A stretch of 64,000 bases of DNA from Thermoplasmata archaeon (GCA_035636595.1 DASPYU010000015.1:168-64167), one strand, 5' to 3'. Positions 31,241 to 55,881 are shown, counted from the first letter of the stretch. Notes: generated by a model from the letters alone, not told the origin. Made by a program: numbers and translations.

Positions 31241-33364
31241 ATGGGACGAGGCCATCGAGGTAACGTTACGCCGCAGGACCTCCTGCTCCCAGAGGGAAAA
31301 CTCATCCGCACCACACGGGGCGGTCCGAACGCGCTCAAGCAGTTGCTCCTCGACCTGAAGAAATATTCGTTCTCGGGGTACGTCCGCACCGTCCGTTCCT
31401 CGGACGGTCGCCGATCGGAAGGCATCGTCTTGCTCCGTGGCGGCAATCCGGAGGCGAGCCTCTACCAGCGCGCCGACTCTCGCGATCGCGGCAGGGCGGC
31501 GCTGAAGAAGGTCTGGCAGGACTCGTACGACGAGGCCTGCGTCCTCGAGTTGCACGCGCGGGTCGACATGGCCGGACTCGTCCACGAGTACGCGGACGCG
31601 GTCCTGGAGCGGCCTTCGAAGGTCGTCAAGAAGACGAAAGTCCCGCACACCATGGGTCGGACCGAGATCGAGAAGCAGCTCCGTGGGTGGCGGGACCGAG
31701 GCTACGACGTCTCGTCCGTTGAAGCCCACTTGGATTCGGACCCCGCGGTCTTGACCGCCTCCGTCCTCGCGATGCGCGAGGCCGTGAAGAAGGCGGAGGC
31801 CGTCGAAACGATCCTGGATACGATCGACGTCACCGGGTTCGAGTCGCGCGCCGCGCTCCTCCGCGAGCGCCTGCGAAATCCCTTGAGGCATCCGGACATC
31901 GATGCGGAAGTCGAGAGTCTGCGCGACGCGATCGAGAGCATGCGGCGCGTCGAGGCGCGACGACAAATCGAGGTGACCCGCGAACGGGACTCGGAGGAAC
32001 GCAGCCGGAAGGTCGTCGAGTTCGTCATGCGGCAGACGGAAAACCTCCGACCCGAATCGGCCCCGACCCCGGAAGAGGTGGCGCGGGTCCTCCGAGAGCC
32101 GACGCCCCTGAAGGACGAGGCCACGGGGCTCGCGCCGTCGTCGACGTTCGAGGACTTCGTCGAGGGGGAGAGCAACCGCTTCGCCCACGGAGCCGCGGTG
32201 GCGGTCGCGAAATCCCCCGCGAAAGCCTACAATCCCCTTCTGATCACCTCGGGTCCCGGACTTGGCAAGACCCATCTCCTCCATGCGATCGGGAACTACA
32301 TCGAGTCGCACTCGAAGGATGCGAAGGTCCGGTACATGACGTGCGAAGGGTTCGCGACGAGCCTCGAAGAAGCGCGGGCCCAGGGGACGATCGCCTCGTT
32401 CCGCGAACGGGTGCGGAGCGTCGACTGCCTGCTCCTCGACGACATCCAGTTCCTCAGCAGCATGCCGGAGATCCACGAGGAGATTTTCTACACGTTCAAC
32501 GACCTCCATGATGGGGATCGTCAGATCGTCCTAGCGAGCGACCGCGCGCCGAAGGCAATCCCGAATCTGGACGAACGCCTTGTGTCGCGGTTCGAATCCG
32601 GCCTCGTCGCAGGGATCGAACCCCCGGAGCTGGCGACCCGGATCGCCATCTTGGAGCGGCGGGCTCGCGATGCGAAAGTCACGATCGATCGGGAAGTCCT
32701 GAGTTTCATCGCGACGACCGTGGAGGACAACGTCCGCGAGCTCGGCGGCGCGTTCAATCGAGTCGTCGCCTTCTCGTCGCTCATGGATCGTCCGATTTCT
32801 TCGGAGCTCGCGCGCGAGGTGCTCTCGGGACCGAAGGAGGACACGGCGTCCCCGAAAGCCGCGTCGGCGCCCTCCGTGGTCGATGAGAATCGCGATCTCC
32901 AACCAGGCCGCAGCTACCTAATCGAAGAGGACCGCCCCGCGGTGGCATTCCGCCTCTTTGCGAGGTTCCTCGGTGGCAGGAGCAGCGGCCTGGTCATTAC
33001 CCGGACCAATCCGAAGCGCGTCCGGGAGACCGTCGACGTGTCCGCCGGTCGGATCCTGTGGTTGACGGACCGCGAAGGCTCGGCCGAAGAGACGATCGCG
33101 CCGGCCCTGGAGCGCATCGTGTACGAGATCGAGGACTTCATGTCGAAGCACCCGCGCGGCGCCGTCCTCCTGGACGGCATCGAGTACCTCGTCTCGAACA
33201 ATTCCTTCGACGCGGTCTTGAAGTTCGTCCGCCGGCTCCTCGACGCGGTCTCGGAGAGCCACTACGCGTTCATCATCTCCCTCGGGGCCGCGACCCTGAA
33301 GGAGCAAGAGCTGAAGACGCTGGAGCGGGAGATGGACGTGATTCGGGCGGCGGAACCCGCCTGA
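31241..33364 (+). CDS. DUF2226-like / coiled-coil / DnaA-type AAA+ / DUF835-like fusion protein
   Basis: N-terminal LPEGKL...FSGYVR. Centre FEDFVEGESNRFA...YNPL...GLGKTHLLHAIGN...LLLDDIQF...SDR...ERLVSRF...NVREL. C-terminal GLVITRTNP...ILWLT...VLLDGIEYLVSNNSF. Confidence 0.88.
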   Translation: MGRGHRGNVTPQDLLLPEGKLIRTTRGGPNALKQLLLDLKKYSFSGYVRTVRSSDGRRSEGIVLLRGGNPEASLYQRADSRDRGRAALKKVWQDSYDEACVLELHARVDMAGLVHEYADAVLERPSKVVKKTKVPHTMGRTEIEKQLRGWRDRGYDVSSVEAHLDSDPAVLTASVLAMREAVKKAEAVETILDTIDVTGFESRAALLRERLRNPLRHPDIDAEVESLRDAIESMRRVEARRQIEVTRERDSEERSRKVVEFVMRQTENLRPESAPTPEEVARVLREPTPLKDEATGLAPSSTFEDFVEGESNRFAHGAAVAVAKSPAKAYNPLLITSGPGLGKTHLLHAIGNYIESHSKDAKVRYMTCEGFATSLEEARAQGTIASFRERVRSVDCLLLDDIQFLSSMPEIHEEIFYTFNDLHDGDRQIVLASDRAPKAIPNLDERLVSRFESGLVAGIEPPELATRIAILERRARDAKVTIDREVLSFIATTVEDNVRELGGAFNRVVAFSSLMDRPISSELAREVLSGPKEDTASPKAASAPSVVDENRDLQPGRSYLIEEDRPAVAFRLFARFLGGRSSGLVITRTNPKRVRETVDVSAGRILWLTDREGSAEETIAPALERIVYEIEDFMSKHPRGAVLLDGIEYLVSNNSFDAVLKFVRRLLDAVSESHYAFIISLGAATLKEQELKTLEREMDVIRAAEPA

Positions 33365-33367
33365 GGC

Positions 33368-34834
33368 TCACTCGAGCGACTCGATCTCCTTGTAGAAATC
33401 CCGGATCTGTCGGAGGGCCTCCCCCCAGGACTCCTGTTTGACGAGCGTGCTCGCCTCCTTCAGGATCCCGATCGGCTTGCCGAGCTCGTTGCCCTTCATC
33501 TTGAGGTCGAGGAGCGCGTTCCGGGCCTTCCGCATTTCCTCCTGGACGTACGACGGCACGTCGCGCTTCAGCCGTTCGTTCGCCTGTCTCCCGAGCCGGG
33601 TCGCGCCCGCGATGTCCTTGCGGTCCATGGCGTCCCTCGCCTGTCGGAGGAGTCGCTCCGCATCGCGCAGGTCCATGCCCGAGGGCCGCATGTCGCGCAC
33701 GAGGCGCTCGCCTCCGTCGATCGCGCGACGGGCGTCGTGGAAGTCCTTCGCCTCCGATTCGAAGGTGCCCATCGTGGCTTCGTATTCGTCCCATGCGCCG
33801 TCGTAGTCGCCGGCCTCGAGGCGCCCGACGGCTTCCTGGAGCTTCGGCAGCGACGCCTTGAGGCCCGCCTCGCCTTTCGCCGCCTGGATTTCTTGGATGA
33901 ACGTGTCGATCCGGCCGCCGATGAATTCGACGAACGCAATGTCGAGGGCCCTTCGGGCGTCCGCGATCAGGGTCACGGCCCGCTCGATGTCGCGACCCTT
34001 CCCCGCCTGGATCGCCTCGTTGATGATCCGCTTCCCATCGTCGATCTCGAGTCCGATCCGCTTCGCGGACACGAGGAGCGGCTTCACCTCGTTGACGAGC
34101 TTCGGCAGCTCGCGATACAGGAGTTTGCGGTCGCCGGCGGGGATCTTCCGCTCGGCTTCCTGTCGGGCGCGGCGGAGTTTGTCGAGCCGGTTCTGGAGGG
34201 GGATCCGGCTGGCGCGGACGGGAGGCGGCGGCGCAGCCGCCCGGGCCGCGAGGGGAGGAGGCCGGGCCGATTCGATCGCGAGCGGAGGCGCTCGGACGAT
34301 TTCCGCCAGGGGTTCGGCGTCCACGGGTTCCGTCCCCGGTTCCTCCGCGAAGCGCACGCCGCAACTCGGGCATTGGTCCGCATCCGCCGGCACAGCGGCC
34401 TTGCACACCGGGCACTCGTATTCCGTCGCCGCGCCTTCCGAGAACTCGGCGCCGCACCCCGGGCAGACGGTCGCGTCCGCGGACACGAGGGTCTCGCAGA
34501 CGGGACAGAGAAACTGCTCGCCGAGGTCCTTCGCCGGCTCCGCGGCGGCGTGGCTCTCGGACTCCACGACGACCTCGTCCGAATCGGGCGTCTCGCGGGC
34601 GACGTTCTTCAGGGTCTCGAAGATCTCCCTGTGGTCTTCCTTGCCTTCCATGATCGAGGCGAGGATCTCGTCGATGCTCCGCCCGTCCTTTTCCGGCACG
34701 TTGACGGTCTCGTGGGAACCGTCGCCGCTGAGGTCGAACAACGTGAGGTCGGTCTGGCACGAAGGACACACCCGCGCGTCTGCGTCGATGGAAGAATCAC
34801 AGACGGGACAGACCTTCGTTTCCTTCGCTGGCGT
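33368..34834 (-). CDS. Multi zinc-ribbon plus helical/coiled-coil protein
   Basis: Three CxxC-x10-CxxC double ribbons, a Pro/Ala linker and a helical C-terminus. The first ribbon is complete only if translation starts upstream of 34771 (ACG at 34834). Confidence 0.8.
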   Translation of the reverse strand, partial: TPAKETKVCPVCDSSIDADARVCPSCQTDLTLFDLSGDGSHETVNVPEKDGRSIDEILASIMEGKEDHREIFETLKNVARETPDSDEVVVESESHAAAEPAKDLGEQFLCPVCETLVSADATVCPGCGAEFSEGAATEYECPVCKAAVPADADQCPSCGVRFAEEPGTEPVDAEPLAEIVRAPPLAIESARPPPLAARAAAPPPPVRASRIPLQNRLDKLRRARQEAERKIPAGDRKLLYRELPKLVNEVKPLLVSAKRIGLEIDDGKRIINEAIQAGKGRDIERAVTLIADARRALDIAFVEFIGGRIDTFIQEIQAAKGEAGLKASLPKLQEAVGRLEAGDYDGAWDEYEATMGTFESEAKDFHDARRAIDGGERLVRDMRPSGMDLRDAERLLRQARDAMDRKDIAGATRLGRQANERLKRDVPSYVQEEMRKARNALLDLKMKGNELGKPIGILKEASTLVKQESWGEALRQIRDFYKEIESLE

Positions 34835-34996: not shown

Positions 34997-35710
34997 ATGG
35001 GCTTTCGGAATTCAATCGAGGGACTCGACAAGGTGATTCGGTCCGAGATCAACCCGCCCAAGGTCATCCTGGTCACCGGACCGCCCGGTTCGATGAAGAC
35101 GTCGTTCTGCTACTCGCTCATGTCGCGGTATCTCAAGGACACGGGCGAGTTCGGGCTGTATACGACCCTCGAAGAGACGGTCCAGTCGCACCTGCGCAAC
35201 ATGGAATCGCTCGGGGTCGAGCTCTCGATGAACATGCAGATCAGCGACTTCACGGACCTTCGGGAGATCGACGCGGTCGTGGGGCCGGAGGACCAGACGG
35301 ATTACCTCGCGTTCATCGAACGCATGATCGGCCATTACCGCAAAGTTCATGGCCACAAGTTCAAGCTCTTCGCCCTCGACTCGCTCGGCGCGCTCTATTC
35401 GCTCATGGAGCACACGACGAACATGCGGAAGCGGATGTTCTACTTCTTCAAGATGCTCCGGGACAACGAGCTCACGTCCCTCGTCGTGATGGAGCGGGCC
35501 GCGGACGGCGAGAGCCAGCTCCTCGGCAACGAGGGGTTCCTGGTAGACGGGATTGTGTTGCTCGGGCTCGACCGGTCCCACGGCAAGCTCGTGCGGTATC
35601 TGCAAGTCGAAAAAATGCGGTCCACGGACCACTCGATGGAGAAACATGCCGTCGAGGTGCGCAAGGGCGGGCTCACCGTCCTCGGTCCGATCTTCGAGAC
35701 CGGGGGCTGA
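34997..35710 (+). CDS. Single-domain KaiC/RAD55-like RecA-fold ATPase
   Basis: IEGLD, Walker A GPPGSMKT, YTTLEE, LDSLGAL, LVDGIVLL, RYLQVEKMRSTDH. Confidence 0.9.
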   Translation: MGFRNSIEGLDKVIRSEINPPKVILVTGPPGSMKTSFCYSLMSRYLKDTGEFGLYTTLEETVQSHLRNMESLGVELSMNMQISDFTDLREIDAVVGPEDQTDYLAFIERMIGHYRKVHGHKFKLFALDSLGALYSLMEHTTNMRKRMFYFFKMLRDNELTSLVVMERAADGESQLLGNEGFLVDGIVLLGLDRSHGKLVRYLQVEKMRSTDHSMEKHAVEVRKGGLTVLGPIFETGG

Positions 35711-35787: not shown

Positions 35788-36942
35788 ATGGCCGAAGCAA
35801 CCATCAAAGACGCACTCGACGCGCTGAAAGGAATCGAAGAAAGCCTGAAATCCCGCGACTCCGAGTTCAAGGAGCGCGAGGCCGCCCTCCAGGATGGGGC
35901 CGCGAAGATCGAGGAAGACCGCCGCGTCCTCGAAGGGGAGCGGACGTCCCTCGCCGACGAACGCGACTCGATCGTCGGCCGCGAGAAGGGCCTTCGCGCC
36001 CGCGAGAAGGAGCTCGAGGTGAAGGAGCGGTCGATCGATCAGCGCGAACAGGAATTCGAGTCGGCGCGCCAGGGTGTCCTCGCGAAGGAGAACCAACTCG
36101 TCTCCCGAGAGCAGGAGCTCGCGAAGCGCCTCGAGACGCTCATGCGACGCGAAGAGGACACCGCCCGTCGCGATGCGGAAACGACGGCGCATTCGCGTGA
36201 CATCGCCGCGCGGAAGAACGAGATCGCCGCGCGACAGGAGCAGATCATCAAGCTCCTCGAGGAGCAGAAGGCGGCGCTCGACGGCCAGATCGGGCGGAAC
36301 CGCGAGCTGATCGAACGCGAGAAGAAGCTCGCGACGGAAGAGGAGAGCATCGCCTCGGCGCGCGCCAAGGTCGCCGAAGAGGCGAAGCGGCTGATCGAGA
36401 AGGAGAAGCAACTCCTGGTGCACGAACAGAACGTCAGCCGAGCTGCGGCCGCTGCGCCTGCGATGGCCACGCCCGCCGCGGGACCCCGACCCATCCCGTC
36501 CCCGGCCGCTTCACAGCCCATGCCCGGACCTGGGCCGCGCCCTCAACCCGTGCCCGCGACGCCGAGCCCCCCGCCCGCCGCAAAGCCCGCGACGCCCGTC
36601 GTCACAGCGGCCCCTCCCGCGGCGAAGCCCGTCACGAAGCCCCTGGCGGCGGAAGCCGAGGGCGAGTCGGAGATCCCCTGTCCGGCCTGTGGGACGATGA
36701 TCTCCTCCGACGCGATCATGTGCTACGCCTGCGGCCATCGCCTCCAAGAAGAATCCGCCGTCGAGGAGACCGTGGAAACGGAAGGCGAGTCGGAGGTCCC
36801 GTGTCCCGCTTGTGGCACGATGATCTCCTCCGACGCGATCATGTGCTACGCCTGCGGCCACCGCATGGCCGCGGACGACGACAAGGGCGCCAAGAGGGCG
36901 CCGGTGAGCGTCAAGAAGGTCCTCAAGAAGAAGGTCATCTGA
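35788..36942 (+). CDS. Long coiled-coil, Pro-rich linker and two zinc ribbons, with a basic C-terminal tail
   Basis: Heptad-rich E/K/R region; two CPACGTMISSDAIMCYACGH units; GGAGGG RBS. Confidence 0.85.
   Translation: MAEATIKDALDALKGIEESLKSRDSEFKEREAALQDGAAKIEEDRRVLEGERTSLADERDSIVGREKGLRAREKELEVKERSIDQREQEFESARQGVLAKENQLVSREQELAKRLETLMRREEDTARRDAETTAHSRDIAARKNEIAARQEQIIKLLEEQKAALDGQIGRNRELIEREKKLATEEESIASARAKVAEEAKRLIEKEKQLLVHEQNVSRAAAAAPAMATPAAGPRPIPSPAASQPMPGPGPRPQPVPATPSPPPAAKPATPVVTAAPPAAKPVTKPLAAEAEGESEIPCPACGTMISSDAIMCYACGHRLQEESAVEETVETEGESEVPCPACGTMISSDAIMCYACGHRMAADDDKGAKRAPVSVKKVLKKKVI
36661..36864 (+). repeat. Intragenic direct repeat (about 80 nt, period 123 nt) encoding the duplicated zinc ribbon
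   Basis: ggcgagtcggag...acgatgatctcctccgacgcgatcatgtgctacgcctgcggcca starts at both 36661 and 36784. Confidence 0.9.
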
Positions 36943-37000: not shown

Positions 37001-37107
37001 CGATTTTCCCGCCAAAAGTGCCACTTTCATACAGAAAGTTGTATAAAATAAGTCTCTCCATAGAATTTGCCTGTTCTTCGCGGTGAGAACAGGTGCGTAT
37101 CGCGATA

Positions 37108-37149
37108 GATAATCGCTCGGTAACCTATTTATAAAGCGGGCCAGGATGG
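37108..37149 (+). promoter_or_regulatory. Promoter with shared motif GATAATC-N8-ACCTA-(TATA, N13)-CCAGGATGG
   Basis: Same layout at 43339-43380 (+) and 55924-55965 (-). Confidence 0.65.
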
Positions 37150-37218
37150 CCGGGAACAATGCCCACCGGCCGTGCACTCCGGATGCGTTCCGAAGGCTCG
37201 ACCTCAGGAGGTCTTGCG

Positions 37219-40029
37219 TTGACCAGCGGCGAACGGAATGCCAAAGCCCTCAGCCTATTGATCGTCTGGACCCTCGCCCTCGGCGGGTTGTTCGCGGCCG
37301 TTGTCGCGATGACCCCGTCCGCGCGCGCAGGGACCTGCGACCAGGTCGGCGGGGTCATCACGGGAGACTGGACGATCACGACGACCCAGGTGTGTACCGG
37401 GATCCGGTACACGGTCGACGGGTCGATCAACGTCAACGCGGGAGGCAGCCTCACGCTGGTCAACGGCGGCCTCAGCTTCTCCAAAGACACGTCCCACGAG
37501 GGCTACGCCCTGAACGTGAATGCGGGCGGCGAACTCGTCCTCGACAATTCGATTGTGACGACGCAGACGGATGCGATCCATCCGTTCATCAAGCTCGCCC
37601 TGACCGTGTCGGGCGCGAACAGCCGGTTGTCGATGAAGAACGGAGCCGTCTTGCAATTCCCGGGATGGTTCAACGCGACCGGAGCGAACCTCAACGTCAC
37701 GAGCTCGACGATCACGGGCTTCACCGCCGGGGATCTCTCGGGCCTCGGCCTGTACACCGATGACAACGACGACGCGCCGCTGATGTCGTGGGCCTCGTCG
37801 ACCGTCGGCCTGTTCGCATCGCGCATCGAGCGGATCTACGAGAACCAGACCGCGAGCGGCGGAAACGCGACCGGGCCGATCAGCGGCAACGTCGCCCTGA
37901 CCGCCTCGAGCAACTTGTATGCGTACGACACGTACGTCGGCGTCGATTTCTCGAACGTCGTCGGCCTGCACAACATGCTGACGGTGGACGGGACGTCCAA
38001 CGCGTACCTGTACAACGTCACGGTCGACCGTACACAGGATCCCATCCTCAAATCCAACTGGCAATCCGCGTTCGTCCCCACCGCCGCCACGGGGAGCATC
38101 TACCTCTTCCGCTGGCTGTGGGCGACCGCGGTCGACTCGACGTCGTTCCCCGTGAGCGGGGCGACGATCTGGTCGGTCCAGAGCCCCGGAAGCGGGACCG
38201 CATCGTTCCCGGACAACGGCCCCTCGACGACCCCGAGCGCGCGGACCCTCTGGTATCTCGGCCGCGCCGCGAGCGGGGCCAACGCTTGGAACCGCACCGG
38301 CGCGACGGGCCTCGCGGTGATCCCTCTCTACACGGACACGATCACGCAAGCGAGCCTGCCGAACGCCGAATCCTTCGGGAACTACCAGGAGACCGTGGCG
38401 TATGCCGCCTCAACCGTGACGGGAGGGGCGTATTTCGATCCCTATCCGGCCATCAACGCACCGGACAACAACAAGGCGGTCACCTACGGACTGCCAATCC
38501 AGGTGCGATCGGGTCCGGACCTCACGCTGCGGCAGACGGACTACAGCGGCACGATGAACGTCCTCCAGAACCAGGCCTTCACGGTCAACGCCCTGATCTA
38601 TAACCAGGGACAGACGACCGCGAACAACGTCGATGTCGCTGCGTACCTGAACGGCAACCGTGCGAACGAAGTGGGCCGGGTCAACGGCCTCACGATCGTC
38701 GCGTTCGTGAACCAGTCCGTGAGCATCACGGGCCTCGCGACCCTCGGGACGCAGACCCTGGAACTCATCGTCGACCCGGACAACACGATCAACGAGGGCG
38801 GCGTCGCGCAGGAGAGCAACAACTTCGTCAACATCACCCTGAACGTGCAGCCCCCGCCGTCGGGATTCGTCGCGATCGTGTCGCCGACGTCGAACCAGAA
38901 GGTCGAACCCGGGAGCACGCTCAGCGTGACGGGCTATGTCCGTGACGTGAGCTCGAACGGCATCTCCGGCCTCGGCCTGACGGTCGAACTGCGATCCGGA
39001 GCCGCGGTCCTCGCCTCGAACACCACGATGTCCGGAACGGACGGCTTCTTCATCGCGGGCATCAACGTGCCGGCTGGCCTCCAGGACGGCTCGTACAACG
39101 TCGTCGTGACGCCGTCGACCGGCCTCGTGTCGCCCGACACGCGGACGATCGCGGTCCAGAAGAGCGTGTCCTTCTTCCTGACGAACGTGCCGTTCCTCAA
39201 CATCCCATACTGGCTCTTCCTCATCATCGTCGCGGCCGCGGTCGCGGTCGTGATCGGTGTGACGGCCTACTGGAAGGTCTACGGCCTCGGGAAGATGGTC
39301 GAGTGCGGCGAGTGCGGCGCCTTCATCCCCGAAGACGCGACGACGTGCCCGAAGTGCGGCGTCGAGTTCGAGAAGGACATGGCGAAGTGCTCGAACTGCC
39401 AGGCCTGGATCCCCGTCGACGTGAAGCAATGCCCCGAATGTGGCGTCGAGTTCGCCACGGGCCAGCTCGAGATGGCCGACTACCAGGAGAAGATGAAGCT
39501 CCAGTACGACGAGGTCGTCGCGAAGTTCAAGCAGGAAGCGGGCCGCCAATTGGGCCGCAGCCTGTCGGATGCCGAGTTCCAGGAGTGGTGGCGCAAGCAG
39601 CCCACGTTCCTGACCTTCGAGGACTGGCTCCGCGAGGAAGAGGAGATGCGCAAGATGGGCTCGAAGCCGTGCCCGACGTGCGGCACCCTCAACTCCGTGA
39701 CGGCGACCGTGTGCCACAAGTGCGGCTCCCTGATGCGCGAGACGCGCCCGCCGGGAGGCGGTGGCGCGGTCGTCGCGGGCGCCCCGACGCGGAGGGGCAT
39801 CGGCCGAGGATCGGACGACAGCTCGGGCGGCGGCTCGCAGGCGGCTCCCTACGGAACCCCTGGCACAGCCACCCCGGGCACGGAGTCGATCCCGCGCCGC
39901 GTGATCCAGAAGCCGGGCGGCCCCGGACCCGTCGTCCAGAAGCGCGTCATCAAGAAGCCGATGGAAGGCCAGGAAGGCGAGGCCTCGGACGACTCGTCGA
40001 GTGGCAACCAGTCGGAAGACGATCTGTGA
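37219..40029 (+). CDS. Surface protein: signal peptide, beta-helix-like region, CARDB/Ig-like domains, TM, cytoplasmic zinc ribbons (short paralog)
   Basis: CARDB-like VDPDNTINEG..ESNN; TM YWLFLIIVAAAV; three CxxC..CxxC units. GGAGGT RBS before TTG 37219; alternative ATG at 37159. Confidence 0.85.
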   Translation: MTSGERNAKALSLLIVWTLALGGLFAAVVAMTPSARAGTCDQVGGVITGDWTITTTQVCTGIRYTVDGSINVNAGGSLTLVNGGLSFSKDTSHEGYALNVNAGGELVLDNSIVTTQTDAIHPFIKLALTVSGANSRLSMKNGAVLQFPGWFNATGANLNVTSSTITGFTAGDLSGLGLYTDDNDDAPLMSWASSTVGLFASRIERIYENQTASGGNATGPISGNVALTASSNLYAYDTYVGVDFSNVVGLHNMLTVDGTSNAYLYNVTVDRTQDPILKSNWQSAFVPTAATGSIYLFRWLWATAVDSTSFPVSGATIWSVQSPGSGTASFPDNGPSTTPSARTLWYLGRAASGANAWNRTGATGLAVIPLYTDTITQASLPNAESFGNYQETVAYAASTVTGGAYFDPYPAINAPDNNKAVTYGLPIQVRSGPDLTLRQTDYSGTMNVLQNQAFTVNALIYNQGQTTANNVDVAAYLNGNRANEVGRVNGLTIVAFVNQSVSITGLATLGTQTLELIVDPDNTINEGGVAQESNNFVNITLNVQPPPSGFVAIVSPTSNQKVEPGSTLSVTGYVRDVSSNGISGLGLTVELRSGAAVLASNTTMSGTDGFFIAGINVPAGLQDGSYNVVVTPSTGLVSPDTRTIAVQKSVSFFLTNVPFLNIPYWLFLIIVAAAVAVVIGVTAYWKVYGLGKMVECGECGAFIPEDATTCPKCGVEFEKDMAKCSNCQAWIPVDVKQCPECGVEFATGQLEMADYQEKMKLQYDEVVAKFKQEAGRQLGRSLSDAEFQEWWRKQPTFLTFEDWLREEEEMRKMGSKPCPTCGTLNSVTATVCHKCGSLMRETRPPGGGGAVVAGAPTRRGIGRGSDDSSGGGSQAAPYGTPGTATPGTESIPRRVIQKPGGPGPVVQKRVIKKPMEGQEGEASDDSSSGNQSEDDL
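39268..39738 (+). repeat. Near-identical copy of 47270-47740 (cytoplasmic zinc-ribbon coding region)
   Basis: Ungapped match at offset 8002, with long exactly identical stretches. Confidence 0.9.
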
Positions 40030-43380: not shown

Positions 43381-43450
43381 GCGCATACTCATGCCCACCG
43401 GTCGGTGCCCTCCGGACGCGCTCGAGGACTCGACGCTCGGAGGTCATCGG

Positions 43451-48074: not shown

Positions 48075-48242
48075 ATGAGACGCGCGGTTCGGAGGCTCCC
48101 GAACGATTCCGGCAGGACCATCCGCCATCGCCGCCCTCCTTACTGCGTGAATCGATCGCACCTGGCCATCTTCGCCTGGTTCCTCGTCGTAACGTTGGTG
48201 TTGGAGCTCCCTGGCGCGATCGGTGCGATCGTCCGCGCGTAA
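48075..48242 (+). CDS. Possible small single-TM protein (31-55 aa)
   Basis: GTG 48147 (or ATG 48075) to TAA 48242 gives ...NRSHLAIFAWFLVVTLVLELPGAIGAIVRA; below the ORF-track cutoff. Confidence 0.35.
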   Translation: MRRAVRRLPNDSGRTIRHRRPPYCVNRSHLAIFAWFLVVTLVLELPGAIGAIVRA

Positions 48243-48294
48243 TCCGCGCGAAATCCGCGCGAAGACCTTATCCACCCCGCGCGATGCCTCGCGG

Positions 48295-49428
48295 ATGCGC
48301 CCGGAGGACCGGCGGGTCGTGGCCTTGCTCGGATTCCTCCATGGGACGGTCCACGCGAACATCCTCTCGATCCCGGTCTTTCTGCTCGCCTGGCGCTCGG
48401 AGTTCGCCGCGGACGACGTGACCCTCGGACTTCTTGCGGCGGTGACGTACGGCGCTTATGGCCTGGGCGCCGTTCCGTTCGGGTATCTGGCGGATCGGCG
48501 CTCCCCGAGCCGCCTCTTGCTTCTGTGTGGCATGGGCATCGCGGCATCGGTTGCGGCGGTTGCGGCAAGTCCCTCGATCCCGCTTCTCGCGGCGTCGCTC
48601 GTCGCCCTCGGCCTGTTTTCCGGGATCTACCATCCGACCGGGCTGTCCGTCATCTCGAGGACCGTGCGCGAGCAGGGACGCGGGATGGGATGGCACGGGA
48701 TGGGTGGCAGCCTCGGGATCGCGTCCGGTCCGGCGTACGTGACTGCCGCGGTCGCCTTGGGATGGTCCTGGCGTCTCGCCGCCGGGCTCCTCGTCGGTCC
48801 ACCGCTCCTGGCCGCGGCCCTCCTGATGGCCGTCGGTCTTCCGCCCGCGCCCCCGGAGCCTGCGGAGGATCGGCCTACCGCCGTCCGTGCCTTGTTCACG
48901 CGGCCCTTCGTCCGGATCCTCCTCGTCTATATGTTCGCCGGGTTCGCGTACCAAGGCGGCCTGACGTTCCTCCCGCGCTTCGTCGGCTCCGCCCCGTTCG
49001 CGGCGGCCCTCGGCCTCGGGGCCATCGGACAAGTGCTGTCGGGCACCCTCGCGGACCGCCGCCATCCGGATCGACTGTTGTTCGTCCTGAGCCTCGTTGC
49101 GGCGGCGATCCTGCTCTTTCTCGCGTTGGGCCCTCCGTATGCCGTGTTCGTGGTTGCCGGGCTCGGCTTCGGGTTCGTCCTGTTCTCGCTGGAGCCGTTA
49201 CAGAACACGCTCGTCACGGGCGAGGCCCCGCGGGCGCGGCGCGGGCTGGCCTTCGGGTTCACGTTCCTCAGCGTCTTCGGGATCGGATCGATCGGAGCCG
49301 CGCTCGCCGGGTGGCTCATCGCACAGAATGCCGCCGCGGCCCTGTTCGCGATCCTCGCCGCGTGCCTCGCGGCGTCGGGCGGCTTCGCCCTCGGAGTGCA
49401 ATCGAGGCGAGCCGCGTCGGGTCGCTGA
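48295..49428 (+). CDS. MFS transporter
   Basis: GYLADRR and GTLADRR motif A, GIYHP; about 12 TM. Confidence 0.88.
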   Translation: MRPEDRRVVALLGFLHGTVHANILSIPVFLLAWRSEFAADDVTLGLLAAVTYGAYGLGAVPFGYLADRRSPSRLLLLCGMGIAASVAAVAASPSIPLLAASLVALGLFSGIYHPTGLSVISRTVREQGRGMGWHGMGGSLGIASGPAYVTAAVALGWSWRLAAGLLVGPPLLAAALLMAVGLPPAPPEPAEDRPTAVRALFTRPFVRILLVYMFAGFAYQGGLTFLPRFVGSAPFAAALGLGAIGQVLSGTLADRRHPDRLLFVLSLVAAAILLFLALGPPYAVFVVAGLGFGFVLFSLEPLQNTLVTGEAPRARRGLAFGFTFLSVFGIGSIGAALAGWLIAQNAAAALFAILAACLAASGGFALGVQSRRAASGR

Positions 49429-51243
49429 TCAGCTCGCGGGCACCGGGACGCCTTGCGCCTGGAGTGTGTCGCGGACGACCTTGATCATCCCGTCCGGGTC
49501 CTTGTAGTACGAGGAGACGATCTTCGCGACGTCGCGGTAGTTCTTGATCTCCATCCGCTTCATGTACTCGAAGATGTCCAGGCGGCGCTTGACCTCCTGT
49601 TCCATCCTCCGCTGGTTCCAGTTCCGCGCGAGGGAGATCTTCTCGTAGACGTACGAGTGACCGGAATAGTTGAACGTGTCATCCGCCGGGTTCCAGGTGT
49701 ACGCGGAGTTCGTGATCAGCTCGTTGCTCTCCGGATCCGTGCCGACGACCTCGACGATCGCCTTCACGCGCCGGGTCATGTCCGTCCCGACCTTGACCTG
49801 CGCCTGGAGGAGCACGATGTCGAGCGCCGCGACCAGGGCGCGCGGCAGGTTGATCGGGTCGTTCTCGAGCCGGTGGACCATCGCCTGGACATCGTCCGCG
49901 TGGAACGTCGTGTACGCGGATTTGCCCGTCGCCATGGCCTGGAACACGACGAACGCCTCGGGTCCACGGACCTCACCGATCATCATGTACTGCGGGCGTT
50001 GCCGCAGCGCCGCTGTGAGGAGGTCGAACATGTCGATCTCGCCGGCCGGCTTGCCGGTGATGTTCGACTTGCCGCCGAATCCGGCGCGCGTCAGGAGCGG
50101 CACCCAGTTCTCGTGCGGCAGGTTCAGCTCGCGGGTGTCTTCGATGGAGACGATCTTCATCTGGGGCGGGATGAACAGCAGGATCGCGTTCAGCGTCGTC
50201 GTCTTGCCGGACGCTGTGCCGCCGCAGATCAACATCGACTGCCCATTCTCGATCGCGAGCCAGAGGTAGCCCATCATCTCCGGGGACATCGTCTTGAAGC
50301 GGACGAGGTCGAGCGGGGTGAAGGGGTTCTCTCGGAACCGCCGGATCGTGAACGAGGACCCGCGCTTCGTGACGTGCATCCCGAGCGTCGCCTGGAGACG
50401 CGAGCCGTCCGGGATCGTCGCGTCGAGCATGGGCTTCGCGACGGAGATGTGCTTGCCGGACCGCTGCGCGAGCCAGATGACGAACGAGTCGAGCTCCTCC
50501 GCGTTGTCGAACTTCAGGTTCGAGGGGATGGACCCGTACTTGCGGTGGTAGATGTACAGCGGCACGTTGACGCCGTCACAGGAGACGTCTTCGACCTGGA
50601 CGTCCGTCATCACGACGTCGATCGCTCCGTACCGGATGAAGTCCCGGAACACATAGTACATGATCCGTTCCTTCGACACGGGGTGGAGGTCCACGCCGAG
50701 TTCTCGCAGGAGGCCGTCGACGATCCGCCGGAGGTAGTTCTGCTTTTGCTCTTTGTCCGCGTCGTCGAGGAGCTCGAGGTTCTCCACGAGGATCTCCTTC
50801 AGGACGTCGAGCAGTTCCGACTCCTCCTCGAGGAGCTTCGGCTCGATCGCCTCGTAGAAGTACTCGTTCGCCATCGTGTCGTACAGGATCCGCGTATAGG
50901 AGTAGTTCTTCAGGATCGGCTGGATCTCGATCTCGTTCATGCCGCGCCGGACGATCTTCGGGATCGTGGTGATCTTGCCGAGGGTGGTCTCCTCGATGCT
51001 GCTGACCTTGGGCGCCTTGACCTTGACGCCCTTCTCTCCGAGGAGGCGGCTGAAGTAGCGGTGCTTGATTGAGTCGAGCGCCTTGAACGTCGTCGCCTTG
51101 CGCTTCTCGTCGAGGTCGTTGAGCATGCGCTTGGCCTCGTCGCGCTCCATGTCGAGGGACCGGACCTTCGACCGAGTCGCGGCCTTCTTCCGATCGATCG
51201 CGTCGAGTTCCTGCGCGTAATTTCCTTCCTGGGATTGCGCCAT
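49429..51243 (-). CDS. Type IV pilus/secretion ATPase (FlaI/PilB/VirB11-like) with N-terminal coiled coil
   Basis: EDVSCDG, SSFTIRRF, GGTASGKTT, SIEDTRE, LRQRP, GEVRG, AMATG. Confidence 0.93.
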   Translation of the reverse strand: MAQSQEGNYAQELDAIDRKKAATRSKVRSLDMERDEAKRMLNDLDEKRKATTFKALDSIKHRYFSRLLGEKGVKVKAPKVSSIEETTLGKITTIPKIVRRGMNEIEIQPILKNYSYTRILYDTMANEYFYEAIEPKLLEEESELLDVLKEILVENLELLDDADKEQKQNYLRRIVDGLLRELGVDLHPVSKERIMYYVFRDFIRYGAIDVVMTDVQVEDVSCDGVNVPLYIYHRKYGSIPSNLKFDNAEELDSFVIWLAQRSGKHISVAKPMLDATIPDGSRLQATLGMHVTKRGSSFTIRRFRENPFTPLDLVRFKTMSPEMMGYLWLAIENGQSMLICGGTASGKTTTLNAILLFIPPQMKIVSIEDTRELNLPHENWVPLLTRAGFGGKSNITGKPAGEIDMFDLLTAALRQRPQYMMIGEVRGPEAFVVFQAMATGKSAYTTFHADDVQAMVHRLENDPINLPRALVAALDIVLLQAQVKVGTDMTRRVKAIVEVVGTDPESNELITNSAYTWNPADDTFNYSGHSYVYEKISLARNWNQRRMEQEVKRRLDIFEYMKRMEIKNYRDVAKIVSSYYKDPDGMIKVVRDTLQAQGVPVPAS

Positions 51244-51252
51244 CGGGTCACC

Positions 51253-52185
51253 TCAGATGATCAGGAACGCGAAGAACGCGATCAGCAGCATGACGAAGCT
51301 GTGCCGCAGGCCGTTCGGAATGCGCCCCGTGTCCAGTACGCCGGCGAGGATGCCGTCGCCCAGGCCGTGGACGATCGTCGCGATGAAGAACGCGAGGCGG
51401 ATGCTCTTGACGACGCCCGGCAGGTCCGTCGCCAGAGGACTGGCCCCGCCCAGGGCGCCGCCGTTCACGCCGCCCGAAAGGGCGCCGCTCGCCTCGAGCA
51501 TCTTCGGCAGGAATGTGACGTTCAGGATCCAGATCGTCACCAGGAACACCATGAACGAGATGTAAATCACCGCGATGTACGTCGACATCGCGATCCGCCG
51601 CTCATCCTCCGTGAGTTGGTTCTCCTTCGTGTCGTGGCTGACCATCGTCAGGACGTCAGCGACGTCGCCACCCGCGTCCGAGGACTTCACGATGATCGCG
51701 ACGATCCGCCCGACCATCGGCGTCTTCACGCGCTCCGCGAACAGCTGCAACGCCTCCGTCGCGGGGACGCCCCAGGTGATCTGGGCCGCCATCTTCTTGA
51801 TCTCCGGCGTGAGCTTGCCGTAGCGCCCGGAGGACGACACGACGATCGCATCCGCGAGGGTCATGCCGAACCGGCCGGCTTCGGCGACGTCGCGCAGGAA
51901 GTCGGGGAGTCGGCGCTCGATGAGCTTGATCTCCCGCGCTTTCTTCGCCATGAAGAAACCGTAGGGTCCGATGAAGCCCAGGATTGCGATGACCATCCAG
52001 TAGAGGCCCCGCTCCGCGGCTCCCTGGTCCCCGCGGAATCCAAGGCTGACGGAGTTGATCACGTTCAGGAAAGCAACGAAGCTAAAGACCACGAGTAGGA
52101 CGCAGCTCACGGCGACGACCGCCTTCTGGCGATCCGCCTTCTGGTAGAGCCGCACCCGGGCCTTCTCGAGTTCGGGGTTCGCCAT
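51253..52185 (-). CDS. Type IV pilus membrane platform protein (TadC/FlaJ-like)
   Basis: LPDFLRDVAEAGRFGMTL...YGKLTPE...GGDVADVL T2SSF pattern. Confidence 0.9.
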   Translation of the reverse strand: MANPELEKARVRLYQKADRQKAVVAVSCVLLVVFSFVAFLNVINSVSLGFRGDQGAAERGLYWMVIAILGFIGPYGFFMAKKAREIKLIERRLPDFLRDVAEAGRFGMTLADAIVVSSSGRYGKLTPEIKKMAAQITWGVPATEALQLFAERVKTPMVGRIVAIIVKSSDAGGDVADVLTMVSHDTKENQLTEDERRIAMSTYIAVIYISFMVFLVTIWILNVTFLPKMLEASGALSGGVNGGALGGASPLATDLPGVVKSIRLAFFIATIVHGLGDGILAGVLDTGRIPNGLRHSFVMLLIAFFAFLII

Positions 52186-52186
52186 G

Positions 52187-53236
52187 TCAGCCCTCCTGCT
52201 CCATGTTCCAGATCACGAAGATGAACCCGAACTGGCTCATCGGGATCATCAGGCCGACGACGACGTACAGCAAGGTGACGACGAAGCTCCCGGACGTCCC
52301 CTTGCTGATCAAGGCCATGATTGCCATGATCACGACGAGGAAGAGGGGGAACGCCACGACGACCGTGACGAAGGACTCCGCGAGCATCCCGAGCGTCTCC
52401 ATCTTCTTCCGCATCTCGAGGCGGTCTTCCTTCTCGAACTGCTCCGCCTTCACGAGGAAGTACGGCTTCAGTTGGCCACCGCTCGTGGACGTCGTGACGA
52501 CGCCCTGAAGGAAGTCCTGGAATTTCGAGGACGGGGACCGCTGCGCAGCCTTGCGGATCGCGGTGAGGATGTCCAAACCGAGGAGTTCCGTGTCGCGGGT
52601 GATCCACTCCGCCTCGCGCGCGACCTCGCCGTACACGGTCTGCTTCGATAGCTCCTTGAAGATCACGTCGACGGGGACGTTCGCGGATGCCATGGCGGAG
52701 ATGAACGACATCGCGCCGGAGATCCGCTTGTCGATCTTGTGGCCGCGCTTCTTCGCCATGGACGCCGGCCTGCCATGGTAGCCGACGGGGAGGCCGAAGA
52801 AATACATGTAGGAGAAGAAGATCGGCAACGCCGCGACGAGGCCGAGGATGATCAGCAGCGTGACGATGTCGATCCGCAAGATGAAGAGGAAGATCGACGC
52901 GATGAACGCGGCGACGACGGCCCCCACCGCGGCGAAGGTCGTGTTCATCCAGGCGACCGCAAGGTACTCCTCGGGCCGCAGCTTGATGTGTGCCTTCAGG
53001 AGGTTGTCCTCGAGCTCCGGGTTGTCCCGTTCGCGGCTCTGGACGAACTTCCCGAACATGCGCCAGGCGACCTGCTCCTTCGGCGACAGGCTCACGTTGA
53101 CGGGCTTCGCGCCCTTCGGGAGCTTGACGAGGTGAGCGCCCTGTTCGGCCTCTTCCTCGCGGCGGGTGCGCTTCGTCTTGGTGAGCGTGCCGCGGGTCTG
53201 CAGCTTCTCGAACGCGGAGCTACCCAACCGTCTCAC
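52187..53236 (-). CDS. Type IV pilus membrane platform protein (TadC/FlaJ-like)
   Basis: YGEVARE...LGLDILTAI...SPSSKFQDFLQG...SGG pattern. Confidence 0.9.
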   Translation of the reverse strand: MRRLGSSAFEKLQTRGTLTKTKRTRREEEAEQGAHLVKLPKGAKPVNVSLSPKEQVAWRMFGKFVQSRERDNPELEDNLLKAHIKLRPEEYLAVAWMNTTFAAVGAVVAAFIASIFLFILRIDIVTLLIILGLVAALPIFFSYMYFFGLPVGYHGRPASMAKKRGHKIDKRISGAMSFISAMASANVPVDVIFKELSKQTVYGEVAREAEWITRDTELLGLDILTAIRKAAQRSPSSKFQDFLQGVVTTSTSGGQLKPYFLVKAEQFEKEDRLEMRKKMETLGMLAESFVTVVVAFPLFLVVIMAIMALISKGTSGSFVVTLLYVVVGLMIPMSQFGFIFVIWNMEQEG

Positions 53237-54872
53237 CCCCGGCCTCGACGGGCTTCAGGACCCCGTGGTCGGCCCATCCCATCTCCTCGCGGATCCGCTT
53301 CGCGGTCTCGTCCGGGTACTGATAATACTGGACGACGATCTTCGCGATCTCGCGGAAGTCCGTCATCCCTTTTTGAACCATGTAGTTGACCACGTCGATC
53401 CGCCGCGCGAATTCGGCTTCCATCTCCTCGTGGGTCATGTTCTTCATTTCCATGATCTCGTCGAACAGGAACGAGTGCCCCTTGTAAACGAAGGTGTCCG
53501 TGGCGGCGTCCCACTCGTACACGGTGTTCGTGATCAGCTCGTTCGTCTCCGGCTCGAACCCGACGAGCTCCACGACCTGCTTGATGCGCCGGACGATCGA
53601 GTCGCCGATGCGGGCGTGCGTCTGGATGATCACGAAGTTGAGGGCCGTGAGCAGGATTCTCGGCGTGTTGATCGGCGGGTTCTCGAGGCGGTTGACCATC
53701 GACTTGACCGAGTCCGCGTGCATCGTCGACATCGTCGGGTGGCCCGTCGCCATCGCCTGGAACATCGTGTACGTCTCCGCGCCTCGGACTTCCCCTACGA
53801 TGATGTAGTTCGGCCGCTGCCGCAGTGCCGCGCGCACGAGGTCGTACATGTCGATCTCGCCGCCGGCCTTCCCGTCGGGCCCGCGCTCGCCGACGCCGGA
53901 CCGCGTTGTGCCGGGGATCCAGTTCTCATGGGGCAGGTTGATCTCCCGCGTGTCTTCGATCGAGACGATCTTCGCGCCCGGCCGGATGAAGAGGCCCGCG
54001 CTGTTCAGCGTCGCGGTCTTCCCGCTCGCGGTGCCGCCGCAGACCATCATCGACTTGCCGTTCTCGACGGCGACCCAGAGGTACGCGACCATCTCGGCGC
54101 TTGCCGTGCCGAACTTCACGAGTTCCGTCGGGGTGAAAGGCTTCTCCTTGTACCGCCGGATCGTGAACGAGGAGCCGCGGGTCGTGACCTCTCGGCTGTA
54201 CGTCGCTTGGACGCGGTGGCCTTCGGTGGACGTGCCGTCGAGGATCGGGTTCGCGACGGAGAGTTGCTTCCCGCACCGCTGCCCGAGCATGACGGCGAAC
54301 GAGTTCAGGGCGTCGTCATCGTCGAAGATGACGTTCGTCTTGATTGACTCGTACTTCTGGTGGAACACGAACAGGGGGATCGCTTCGCCGTCGCAGGAGA
54401 CGTCCTCGATCCGGAGGTCCGCCATGAGCACGTCGACGGGACCGTATCCGACGAAGTCCCGGATGATGTAGTAGACGATCTTGTCCTTCGAGGCGGGTTC
54501 GAGCCGCAGGCCGCGGGACTTGATGAACGAGTCGACGGCTTCCTGCAGGTACTCCTTCTTGTCTTTCTCCGCCATCTTGTCCCATTCGTACTCGAGCGTG
54601 CGGTTCAGGGAGTCCTTGATCATGTCGAGGAACTCCTTCTCGCGTTCGTCGAGCTGGGGTTCCCAGACCTCGTAGACGTATTCGGAGCGCTCGTGGTCGT
54701 AGACGATGCGCGCGTAGGTGAAAGGCTCGCGGATCGGCACGACCTCGATCTCTTCAAGGCTATCGCGAGTGAGGTCGGGGATCCGCGTGAGGTAGGAACC
54801 GCGCGTCCCGGACCACTCCGCCTTCTGCTGGATTGCGCCCCGCGGCATCATCACCTTGCGTTGCTTCGGCAT
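53220..54872 (-). CDS. Type IV pilus/secretion ATPase (second paralog)
   Basis: GGTASGKTA, SIEDTRE, LRQRP, GEVRG, AMATGH, TMHA. Confidence 0.93.
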   Translation of the reverse strand: MPKQRKVMMPRGAIQQKAEWSGTRGSYLTRIPDLTRDSLEEIEVVPIREPFTYARIVYDHERSEYVYEVWEPQLDEREKEFLDMIKDSLNRTLEYEWDKMAEKDKKEYLQEAVDSFIKSRGLRLEPASKDKIVYYIIRDFVGYGPVDVLMADLRIEDVSCDGEAIPLFVFHQKYESIKTNVIFDDDDALNSFAVMLGQRCGKQLSVANPILDGTSTEGHRVQATYSREVTTRGSSFTIRRYKEKPFTPTELVKFGTASAEMVAYLWVAVENGKSMMVCGGTASGKTATLNSAGLFIRPGAKIVSIEDTREINLPHENWIPGTTRSGVGERGPDGKAGGEIDMYDLVRAALRQRPNYIIVGEVRGAETYTMFQAMATGHPTMSTMHADSVKSMVNRLENPPINTPRILLTALNFVIIQTHARIGDSIVRRIKQVVELVGFEPETNELITNTVYEWDAATDTFVYKGHSFLFDEIMEMKNMTHEEMEAEFARRIDVVNYMVQKGMTDFREIAKIVVQYYQYPDETAKRIREEMGWADHGVLKPVEAGGETVG

Positions 54873-54882
54873 GTGTGGTCCC

Positions 54883-55881
54883 TCAGAACTGGACGTTCTC
54901 CGCCGCCTCGCCGACGCCCACTTGGACCTGCGCGTGCTGCAGGCGGAAGACGCTCAGGGGCAGGATCCCGACGTTGTTGTGAATCTCGAGCCGCATCGTG
55001 TACATCCCGCTCGTCGGGTTGAGGCTCGCGCTGATCTTATAGACGGTCAACAGCCCGATCTTCGCGGTGAAGGAGACGTCCAGCGGTGTCGAGGTGAACG
55101 TGCCTCCGAGTTTCAGGGCGCCGGAGAGGGTCTGGTTCAGGAACGAGTACCATGCGAGGCCATAGCGGGACGTGTGGTTGATCCAGACGACCGCGTTGCT
55201 CGCGAAACCCCGGTAATCCTGCCGGTCGAACGCGAATACCTGCGTATTCACGATTTCCGTGCTCGTCCCCGCGATCGCGCCGGTTCCGTACAGGCTGACG
55301 AGCCCGAAGGAGACATCCAGGGAATTGTTTGTCTTCCCGACGGCGAAGGTGGGTTGTGCCCGGACGACTTGGCCGTCGCCCTGGTACCGGATGACCGCGC
55401 CGTTCTCGTACGCGATCGTCTGGGCCGTGTAGTAGCGGTTCGCCACTTGGAGTTCGATGGAGCCGTTCGATTGTTCCGCGACATGCGTGCGGACGTTGTT
55501 GATGAGATAGTCGAAGGTGACGGTGAAGGAGCCTGCATCCGGGAACGATCGCAAGGTGCCGATCGTCGACGCGGAGAAGATGGGAACTCCGTCGACGCCG
55601 AGGCCGACCGCGGACGAGGCCGTCACGGGGATGTAGAACGTGCCCGCGTTCTGCGCCGATTGCGCGGCGAGCTCCTGGAGGTCGATCGCGCCCTTGAGGC
55701 CTCCGAACTGGCCGAGGGCGCTGTTCATGTGGGCCGCCTCGGAGTCCTTCATCCAGACGGGGACGTATTGGTTGACAATCAAACTCAGGAATGTGAGGAA
55801 GACCAGGAGGGCCATGATCGTGCCGACCGTCGAGGCGACACCCCTCTTATCCGACCGAAGCTCGTGGATCACGACACGCAT
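54883..55881 (-). CDS. Pilin-like protein with class III signal peptide
   Basis: DKRG|VASTVGTIMALLVFLTFLSLI; YENGAV motif; first gene of the T4P operon. Confidence 0.82.
   Translation of the reverse strand: MRVVIHELRSDKRGVASTVGTIMALLVFLTFLSLIVNQYVPVWMKDSEAAHMNSALGQFGGLKGAIDLQELAAQSAQNAGTFYIPVTASSAVGLGVDGVPIFSASTIGTLRSFPDAGSFTVTFDYLINNVRTHVAEQSNGSIELQVANRYYTAQTIAYENGAVIRYQGDGQVVRAQPTFAVGKTNNSLDVSFGLVSLYGTGAIAGTSTEIVNTQVFAFDRQDYRGFASNAVVWINHTSRYGLAWYSFLNQTLSGALKLGGTFTSTPLDVSFTAKIGLLTVYKISASLNPTSGMYTMRLEIHNNVGILPLSVFRLQHAQVQVGVGEAAENVQF

Follow-up and report, generated by a model that had tools for sequence, protein, structure and literature searches.

The CdiP pilus of Cuniculiplasma divulgatum is encoded, according to the sections of its description cited here, by an operon with two T2SSE-type ATPases and a platform protein split into N- and C-terminal parts; its role is given as adhesive rather than twitching, and the two ATPases of CdiP-type machines are called enigmatic (PMC12448462). 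In the survey of Makarova, Koonin and Albers (2016), as far as the portions cited here extend, euryarchaeal clade-2 pilus loci carry two TadC-like genes with an S-layer-like protein as a typical neighbor, the locus of Aciduliprofundum boonei encodes two distinct ATPases and one pilin, and KaiC-family ATPases, zinc-ribbon and coiled-coil proteins are noted near various archaeal pilus loci (PMC4858521). Here we describe a locus that brings such components together in a stretch of 64,000 nucleotides from a Thermoplasmata archaeon (GCA_035636595.1, DASPYU010000015.1:168-64167), referred to below as the window. Its positions 31241-55881 hold a pilus operon, two giant surface proteins with zinc-ribbon tails (g5 and g8), two soluble zinc-ribbon proteins (g2 and g4), a KaiC-like ATPase (g3) and a DnaA–DUF835 fusion (g1).

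The pilus genes of the window resemble CdiP in their two ATPases, their split platform and their Thermoplasmata lineage; the likeness is one of described architecture. In the class sample, families without the surface-protein tail are also without close orthologs of the two window ATPases (g10 and g13). The cited sections on CdiP mention no giant zinc-ribbon-tailed surface protein and no KaiC or DnaA–DUF835 neighbor (PMC12448462). A further precedent in print, next to KaiC proteins near pilus loci, is the ArlH (FlaH)–ArlI pair of the archaellum (PMC4858521; PMC12448462). Like g3, ArlH has a single KaiC-like ATPase domain and is encoded alongside an ATPase of a type IV filament, and we take it as the model of a switch that depends on nucleotide; unlike ArlH, g3 has a deviant P-loop, and the window genome has no archaellum operon.

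We place about even confidence in reading the span as one conserved functional neighborhood of the class Thermoplasmata with two modules, in which a KaiC-type switch would tune the pilus. Module B would be the CdiP-type pilus together with a giant surface protein anchored by one C-terminal transmembrane helix. Module A would consist of the KaiC-like ATPase g3 and g4, plus g1 with its constant neighbor g2. The initial annotation of this DNA, made from the sequence without database searches, had proposed an undescribed surface-sensing system. The linkage in relatives that it proposed to check and its recurring ribbons held up, and the word undescribed applies in part: the operon type, the association of KaiC with pili and DUF835 as an inactivated KaiC (iKaiC) are already in print. 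Neither the cited sections on clade-2 loci (PMC4858521; its supplementary S1/S4 may list some neighbors) nor our literature searches gave an account of a triple-ribbon tail family, a shared C-terminal motif, a DnaA–DUF835 fusion or the composite neighborhood, and the searches likewise gave none of the fusion's N-domain or of its pairing with ribbon proteins.

Gene calls were made from third-position G+C, the G+C content of the window being ~65%, and checked with Pfam and NCBIfam:

g1, 31241-33364, plus strand: N-domain (~10-125), coiled coil, DnaA domain III (AAA+ and lid) and DUF835 (Pfam, NCBIfam)
g2, 33368-34771, minus strand: soluble protein with an N-terminal CxxC, two double zinc ribbons, a proline-rich linker and a helical C-terminal half or domain
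g3, 34997-35710, plus strand: single-domain KaiC-like ATPase (PF06745, 118 bits); the longest open reading frame (ORF) starts at 34955
g4, 35788-36942, plus strand: coiled coil of ~215 residues, then two zinc ribbons and a basic C-terminal motif
g5, 37159-40029, plus strand: 956-residue surface protein with signal, beta-rich ectodomain, CARDB, predicted transmembrane helix and putative cytoplasmic tail
g6b, 40284-41099, minus strand: doubtful ORF of 271 residues with about six hydrophobic helices; third-position G+C 0.71, borderline
g7, 41397-43031, minus strand: 544-residue pilin-like protein with an archaeal class III N-terminus (Pilin_N, 41.8 bits; arch_flag_Nterm)
g8, 43391-48037, plus strand: 1548-residue paralog of g5 whose middle region is an insertion containing extra CARDB
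g9, 48223-49428, plus strand: MFS transporter, a passenger gene (Pfam)
g10, 49429-51243, minus strand: second pilus ATPase, T2SSE, 604 residues, with a charged helical N-terminal extension
g11, 51253-52185, minus strand: T2SSF, C-terminal half of a split TadC/PilC-type platform
g12, 52187-53236, minus strand: T2SSF, N-terminal half of the split platform
g13, 53220-54872, minus strand: first pilus ATPase, T2SSE, 550 residues, with a PilB3_C domain
g14, 54883-55881, minus strand: 332-residue pilin-like protein, first gene of the operon g14-g13-g12-g11-g10

Pfam, NCBIfam and the sequences themselves bear out all the components listed in the initial annotation at their coordinates. The operon g14-g13-g12-g11-g10 is tightly packed, with intergenic gaps of -17 to 10 bases, and g2 is convergent with g1, 3 bases separating the two. 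TATA-like boxes lie 5' of g5, g8, g7 and g14. Two genes sit inside the span but outside the conserved cluster: g6b, which had no Pfam, NCBIfam or PADLOC match and no counterpart in the relatives' clusters examined, and the MFS gene g9, which had no match in the other-family or class-level loci examined.

The type IV pilus and the giant surface proteins

The two ATPases match PF00437 (T2SSE) at 110.8 and 117.8 bits, and Walker A, Asp box, Walker B and His box are all visible in the sequences of g10 and g13. The initial annotation counted two TadC proteins; there are indeed two T2SSF genes, both matching PF00482, yet they represent two halves of one platform rather than separate TadC proteins, as g12 corresponds to positions 8-244 and g11 to positions 267-539 of the ArlJ profile (NCBIfam). 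The two class III pilins proposed in the same place fared unevenly. The Pilin_N score of g7 is above the Pfam cut-off of 25.2, whereas g14 has a pilin-like N-terminus only, its sole Pfam match being DUF7289 at 26.1 bits, just below the 27-bit cut-off. A g14-type gene is kept beside the ATPase across the class.

In this 94%-complete genome g10 and g13 are the only two T2SSE genes, and no protein of the genome reaches the cut-off of the ArlH model; the genome therefore has no archaellum and no second pilus system. The pilus of module B is thus predicted to be the only type IV filament machine of this genome, and to be of the CdiP type. Two genes past the pilus operon, at 57701-58657 on the minus strand, the window encodes a squalene-cyclase-like repeat protein; a squalene cyclase is also mentioned for pilus loci of Thermococci in the cited portions of PMC4858521.

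Both g5 and g8 have an N-terminal hydrophobic signal, CARDB and one C-terminal transmembrane helix, the helix being assigned by hydropathy only. The ectodomain is indicated by hydropathy windows and by CARDB/MG2 matches, and contains 9 (g5) and 19 (g8) N-x-S/T sequons. Behind the helix follows a putative cytoplasmic tail of ~250 residues with three CxxC-x10-CxxC ribbons, arranged as a double ribbon of the g2 type, a tryptophan-rich helical segment, a ribbon of the g4 type, a proline-rich linker and a basic motif. The two proteins are 64% identical over both aligned blocks (N- and C-terminal), and their tails reach 94% identity over 161 residues, against 64% for the whole proteins. The 80 bases 5' of g5 (37079-37158) and of g8 (43311-43390) are also alike and have a TATA-like box in common. 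The similar upstream bases, together with the high identity of the tails relative to the whole proteins, suggest that the duplication that gave rise to g5 and g8 took in the promoter, and that the tail then came under strong constraint or underwent gene conversion.

In an alignment of 24 tail-bearing proteins, drawn from the order of the window and 17 other families, all 12 ribbon cysteines are invariant (24/24), the helical segment has invariant tryptophans, and the basic motif, (K/R)(K/R)V(V/I)(K/R)(K/R)P, occurs once or twice close to the C-terminus. The distribution of the tail was assessed in a class set of 201 genomes, one of them unpublished (G131; genomes, families and loci bear our own G, f and L numbers). 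Matches were detected in 176 of these genomes at E<=1e-5, and strong ones (E<=1e-20) in ~146 of them by hand count. The tail nearly always terminates an open frame of 1000-2900 residues. Beyond the class, 69 genomes yielded only four partial matches, which span the transmembrane helix and the first double ribbon. In public records the tail proteins are labeled 'zinc ribbon domain-containing', 'CARDB domain-containing', 'hypothetical' or 'ribosomal protein L40E'. The last label is wrong; the third tail ribbon scores 31.7 bits against the ribbons of ribosomal L40e, which is below the cut-off.

Shared ribbons, a KaiC-like ATPase and a DnaA–DUF835 fusion

The initial annotation had noted that zinc ribbons recur in four proteins of the span, and profile comparison substantiates this as homology between modules common to g2, g4 and the two tails. 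The DZR family (PF12773, cut-off 27.3) matches g2 at 32.0, g4 at 39.3, g5 at 41.7 and g8 at 38.7 bits. Five CxxC motifs of g2 make up its two double ribbons and the single N-terminal CxxC; the double ribbon of g2 corresponds to tail ribbons 1-2 (hhalign 98.9%, E 2e-17, 64 columns), and the ribbon of g4 corresponds to tail ribbon 3 (hhalign 97.3%, E 2.4e-11). At its C-terminal end g4 reads K-K-V-x-K-K-K-V-I, and the basic motif is kept in g4 orthologs and in tails across families. Because the g2 and g4 ribbon profiles match the tail ribbons and the motif is common to tail and g4, the tail is a composite of the g2 and g4 ribbon modules with the C-terminal motif of g4. Among 5108 candidate ORFs of the genome the combination of ribbon and basic C-terminal motif occurs in three, namely g4, g5 and g8; the motif alone is found in the last 40 residues of five ORFs.

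Searches with g2 against PDB profiles returned generic ribbons only, with ArnA at a non-significant E of 0.22, and a search of the Atlas returned unnamed clusters of Thermoplasmatota as well as EzrA at 0.79, to be taken as no more than a lead. A Cys-rich output domain described in signal transduction, TackOD1, is DZR-like and occurs within thaumarchaeal pilus loci; in the cited part of that work it has another cysteine pattern (11 Cys) and is joined to receiver domains (Galperin et al. 2018, PMC5847659). The ribbons of the window, unlike TackOD1, are ordinary DZR ribbons and belong to a membrane tail and to proteins encoded next to KaiC.

The PF06745 score of g3 compares with a cut-off of 26.6, and its best PDB matches are KaiC proteins. 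Across 14 aligned orthologs the mean column identity is 68%, and the catalytic glutamate pair (E59, E60) and the Walker B aspartate (D128) are invariant. The gene occurs as a single copy in 114 of the 201 class genomes (E<=1e-70), and at 16 of 18 loci the g3 ortholog has g4 as its neighbor.

KaiC-like ATPases and inactivated KaiC (DUF835) have reportedly been portrayed as archaeal signaling hubs by Makarova, Galperin and Koonin in 2017. The window genome resembles that picture in its expanded KaiC family and in the P-loop-less DUF835 fused to varied input and output domains. It encodes 17 KaiC-like ORFs at 11 loci, and four further KaiC loci have zinc-ribbon partners (L104:1178-6989, L105:3605-7110, L106:658-6843 and L107:607-5919). 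Arrangements found at further KaiC loci comprise a KaiC followed by a 1649-residue subtilase/fn3 surface protein with a C-terminal transmembrane helix and a cytoplasmic ribbon, a ribbon–TPR–KaiC fusion inside a cluster of four KaiC genes, a DZR–TPR–transmembrane–DUF11 protein beside KaiC, and a protein with a ribbon and five transmembrane helices between KaiC paralogs. A ribbon ORF lies within 3 kb at 7 of the 11 loci, against a background of 0.254 (binomial P ~0.008); leaving aside two unrelated proteins among the seven brings the relevant count to 5 of 11.

The fusion protein g1 matches Bac_DnaA (PF00308) at 193.6 bits and DUF835 (PF05763) at 95.4 bits, the cut-off of the latter being 33.1. 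Compared with the DnaA structures 8bv3/8btg it scores 250 bits over 233 residues, and Walker A/B, the box VII arginine region and sensor 2 of its domain III align with solved DnaA. The score against the DnaA equivalog TIGR00362 is 309 bits, under the cut-off of 343.9, and covers profile positions 61-337 of 437. No domain IV (Bac_DnaA_C, PF08299) was detected in g1 or elsewhere in the genome by a search whose control matched 10 bacteria. As domain IV is absent genome-wide and two ordinary Orc1/Cdc6 genes are present, g1 was ruled out as a replication initiator. It shares domain III with bacterial DnaA/Hda and differs from bacterial DnaA in having no domain IV and no recognizable domain I, in its archaeal host with Orc1/Cdc6 genes and in its C-terminal DUF835. 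The public labels of its homologs are 'DnaA/Hda family protein [Thermoplasmata archaeon]' and 'chromosomal replication initiator protein DnaA'.

The listing of DUF835 as an inactivated KaiC, given in the cited part of PMC5847659, was reproduced at profile level: a DUF835 profile of 25 sequences and a KaiC profile of 30 sequences align over 115 columns (hhalign 83.9%, E 7.8e-6), starting just past the P-loop and taking in Walker B. One DUF835 sequence compared with the KaiC alignment gave no signal, a result superseded by these deeper profiles. The N-domain of g1 (~120 residues) had no informative match in Pfam (E up to 10), PDB or the Atlas and no similarity to KaiC by hhalign; the PDB profile search with the N-terminal region returned coiled-coil noise and the start of DnaA only. 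The domain is N-terminal in 289 protein clusters. In a sample of 40 of these, Bac_DnaA was found in 13 and DUF835 in 16, both in 7, and no other family in 17; three of the 40 end in zinc ribbons, which in two of them replace DUF835 after DnaA. Distant g1 orthologs (L061, L085, L097, L098 and L100) have, within the linker that precedes their DnaA domain, a CxxC...CxxC ribbon at alignment columns ~345-375, which is absent from g1 of the window's order. A full-length g1 ortholog was identified in all 41 relatives from seven families of the order, and g2 adjoins g1 in every one of the 16 other-genome loci with the flank available.

DUF835 also occurs with an initiator-type AAA+ protein in another arrangement. 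On contig C16 of the window's own genome (L005:1420-3350), the gene of an Orc1/Cdc6 paralog (441 residues) overlaps by 4 bases a stand-alone DUF835 gene (202 residues) downstream of it, with a DHH/DHHA1 (RecJ/Cdc45-like) gene as convergent neighbor. The pair is present in the 10 closest of the 30 DUF835 loci fetched (own genome, three from f3, four from f10 and two from f19), and the other 20 are paralogs without Cdc6. The combination of an initiator-type AAA+ with DUF835 thus has two occurrences in independent forms.

A different explanation is that DNA is the target of g1 and g2 and perhaps of the tails: on it g1 would form an ATP-dependent oligomer of the DnaA type, ribbons and motifs would bind nucleic acid, and the locus would couple the pilus to DNA uptake or exchange, or KaiC signaling to replication. 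It is favored by the intact motifs of g1 domain III with their score against solved DnaA, by the conserved operon of DUF835 with the Orc1/Cdc6 paralog, by the L40e-like third tail ribbon, albeit below the cut-off, and by the strongly basic C-terminal motif. It is also favored by gyrB-gyrA beside g1 in two other families, where thiC-gyrB-gyrA stand between g1-g2 and KaiC-g4 (L061:6536-13632 and L085:7896-13950, with a Yip1-domain gene in one). A DnaA-type gene beside gyrase resembles the dnaA-gyrB region of bacteria, and the adjacency may be a relic of joint transfer of gyrase with the DnaA-type domain. Considering also the absence of domain IV from g1 and from the genome, the two ordinary Orc1/Cdc6 genes and the lack of any nuclease, helicase or DNA-translocase gene in the cluster by Pfam and NCBIfam scans, we regard an action on DNA as improbable. 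A defence system was rejected as well: PADLOC, run on seven proteins, returned one weak match (g1 to mad8, E 2.2e-4, with no stretch passing alone) and none for the others.

Conservation and linkage across the class

The genomic context was compared within the order over 40 kb around g1 in eight genomes of other families, and at class level over 40 kb around the tail at 20 places (19 genomes, 18 families). Linkage and co-occurrence, which the initial annotation had proposed to check in relatives, both hold across the order and in much of the class. The order PGK-g1-g2-KaiC-g4-surface-ATPase-TadC-TadC-ATPase-pilin is intact in six of the eight genomes. Of the remaining two, G034 keeps PGK-g1-g2-KaiC-g4, with tail and pilus on another contig; in G027, which retains g1-g2, a different contig carries KaiC, tail and ATPase together. 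At 11 of the 20 class-level places the surface gene has the pilus operon next to it, including G047, where the operon is inverted yet adjacent. KaiC and g4 lie directly upstream of the surface gene at 5/20; g7-like pilins are near the surface gene at 5/20 and stand next to KaiC-g4 in G089, where KaiC-g4 is 17 kb upstream of the surface gene. In two genomes (G041, G098) g1-g2-KaiC(-g4) forms a separate block. The housekeeping flanks PGK, M20 and MFS were found near the surface gene at none of the 20 places (>=60 bits).

Because the ORFs with ribbon and motif are confined to the locus and gene order is kept far beyond the genus, the clustering of these components is not due to chance. A rival view holds that the genes have no functional link and form a slowly rearranging syntenic block of the class, in which ribbons are merely abundant. 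The housekeeping genes embedded in the block, the relatedness of the compared genomes and the frequency of ribbons in the genome agree with it. Against it, the flanks are lost at class level while the pilus and KaiC-g4 stay, the adjacency outlasts the inversion of the operon in G047, the motif is specific to the locus, and the pattern of co-occurrence described below speaks against it too; we give this view little credence.

Compared by hand, tail and ATPase share a contig at less than 10 kb in ~74 genomes and do not in ~46, many of which have them at contig ends; by the same kind of comparison of coordinates, KaiC and tail are less than 15 kb apart in ~39 of 113 genomes. The ATPase pair is present in 155 of the 201 class genomes. 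Three families, f12, f24 and f31, lack tail, ATPase pair and g3 alike, save for one weak ATPase match among the 19 genomes of f24. Tail and pilus are kept with g3 absent in f16 (0/7), f17 (0/23), f25 (0/2), f13 and f20 (g3 in 1/3). In all 15 class-level genomes tested, g1 and g3 are jointly present or jointly absent. Among the genomes sampled module A was found only together with module B, and B also occurs without A. The distribution of module A is therefore nested in that of module B, given that A never occurs without B in these genomes and that g1 and g3 co-occur.

Several observations weigh against a joint function of the two modules. The genomes compared are related, and the counts above are not independent events. 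Zinc ribbons are common, promiscuous modules, with 82 ORFs of the genome matching the ribbon pattern. The Walker A motif of g3 is non-canonical with respect to GxxxxGK[ST], the glycine before the lysine being methionine in 13 of 14 orthologs and leucine in one, and an identity of g3 with ArlH/FlaH was ruled out: it scores 21.1 bits against an NCBIfam cut-off of 215 and is the weakest of the genome's 18 ArlH-model matches, among the matches listed. Module B occurs without A in several families, so that KaiC is dispensable for the pilus and the surface protein, and in many families (f6, f8, f15, f21, f23 and f27) the two modules are far apart or on different contigs. PGK stands beside g1 throughout the order, and thiC-gyrB-gyrA are embedded in the two families mentioned above; since such housekeeping genes share the synteny, some of the linkage may be inertia. 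The link of g1 and g2 to the rest is weaker than the tail–pilus and KaiC–g4 links.

In the main competing explanation, module B alone works as a functional unit. The giant protein would then partner the pilus machine structurally, as part of the envelope or as an adhesin; it might, for instance, stand in for a collar or stator where cells have no S-layer. Its tail would dock on the motor, and KaiC/g4 and g1/g2 would be neighbors through inherited synteny that serve another process. The adjacency of tail and pilus is the most widespread link at class level and by coordinates, module B stands without A in several families, housekeeping genes take part in the synteny, and S-layer-like proteins are typical of such pilus loci in the cited portions of PMC4858521. 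Several findings are hard to fit to it: the ribbon subtype and C-terminal motif that g4 shares with the tail occur nowhere else in the genome, by coordinates, at least 12 families have KaiC and g4 immediately upstream of their surface gene, and A was never seen without B in the genomes tested. We consider a function confined to module B a serious possibility, although an unlikely one.

Outside the span and upstream of g1, the window encodes a small GTPase of the Ras/Roc/Arf family (19846-20865, minus strand, 119 bits), followed by two ORFs without a family match (20739-21758 and 21860-22465). It also encodes a STAND-like AAA ATPase of 898 residues with TPR repeats (6937-9633, plus strand).

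A possible KaiC-type switch on the pilus

Returning to the two-module neighborhood, the gene content, module homology, conservation and co-occurrence observed here are the basis on which we infer the contacts between its proteins and the direction in which information passes. Ribbons and basic motif alike may serve as docking modules. The membrane-anchored tail, g2 and g4 would offer the same modules to KaiC-type oligomers, which could be formed by g3 and by the DUF835 end of g1. In this way the state or the clustering of the surface protein could be read by an ATP-driven KaiC/iKaiC switch, and the switch would tune the two pilus ATPases, by analogy with the action of ArlH on ArlI. Module A would accordingly be an accessory regulator and not a core part of the pilus.

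A bolder version can be put forward as a speculation that we think rather unlikely to be correct. The locus would encode a surface-sensing pathway peculiar to Thermoplasmata, in which a giant adhesin-like surface protein senses contact or load and its triple-ribbon tail passes the signal to a KaiC/iKaiC switch. The switch would contain a domesticated bacterial DnaA AAA+ domain and would balance the two ATPases of the cell's only pilus. As iKaiC forms a conserved operon with an Orc1/Cdc6 paralog, the hub may link surface attachment to replication control.

Together, our results correct two database labels, 'chromosomal replication initiator DnaA' and 'ribosomal protein L40E'. To our knowledge, little is known about the regulation of archaeal type IV pili and about the roles of many KaiC paralogs and DUF835 proteins. 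The locus provides a class-wide candidate circuit with a short putative docking motif and two ribbon subtypes, each common to the tail and a soluble protein, with a KaiC of unusual P-loop, and with an archaeal protein that has taken in a DnaA domain III. It may also bear on why CdiP-type machines have two ATPases.

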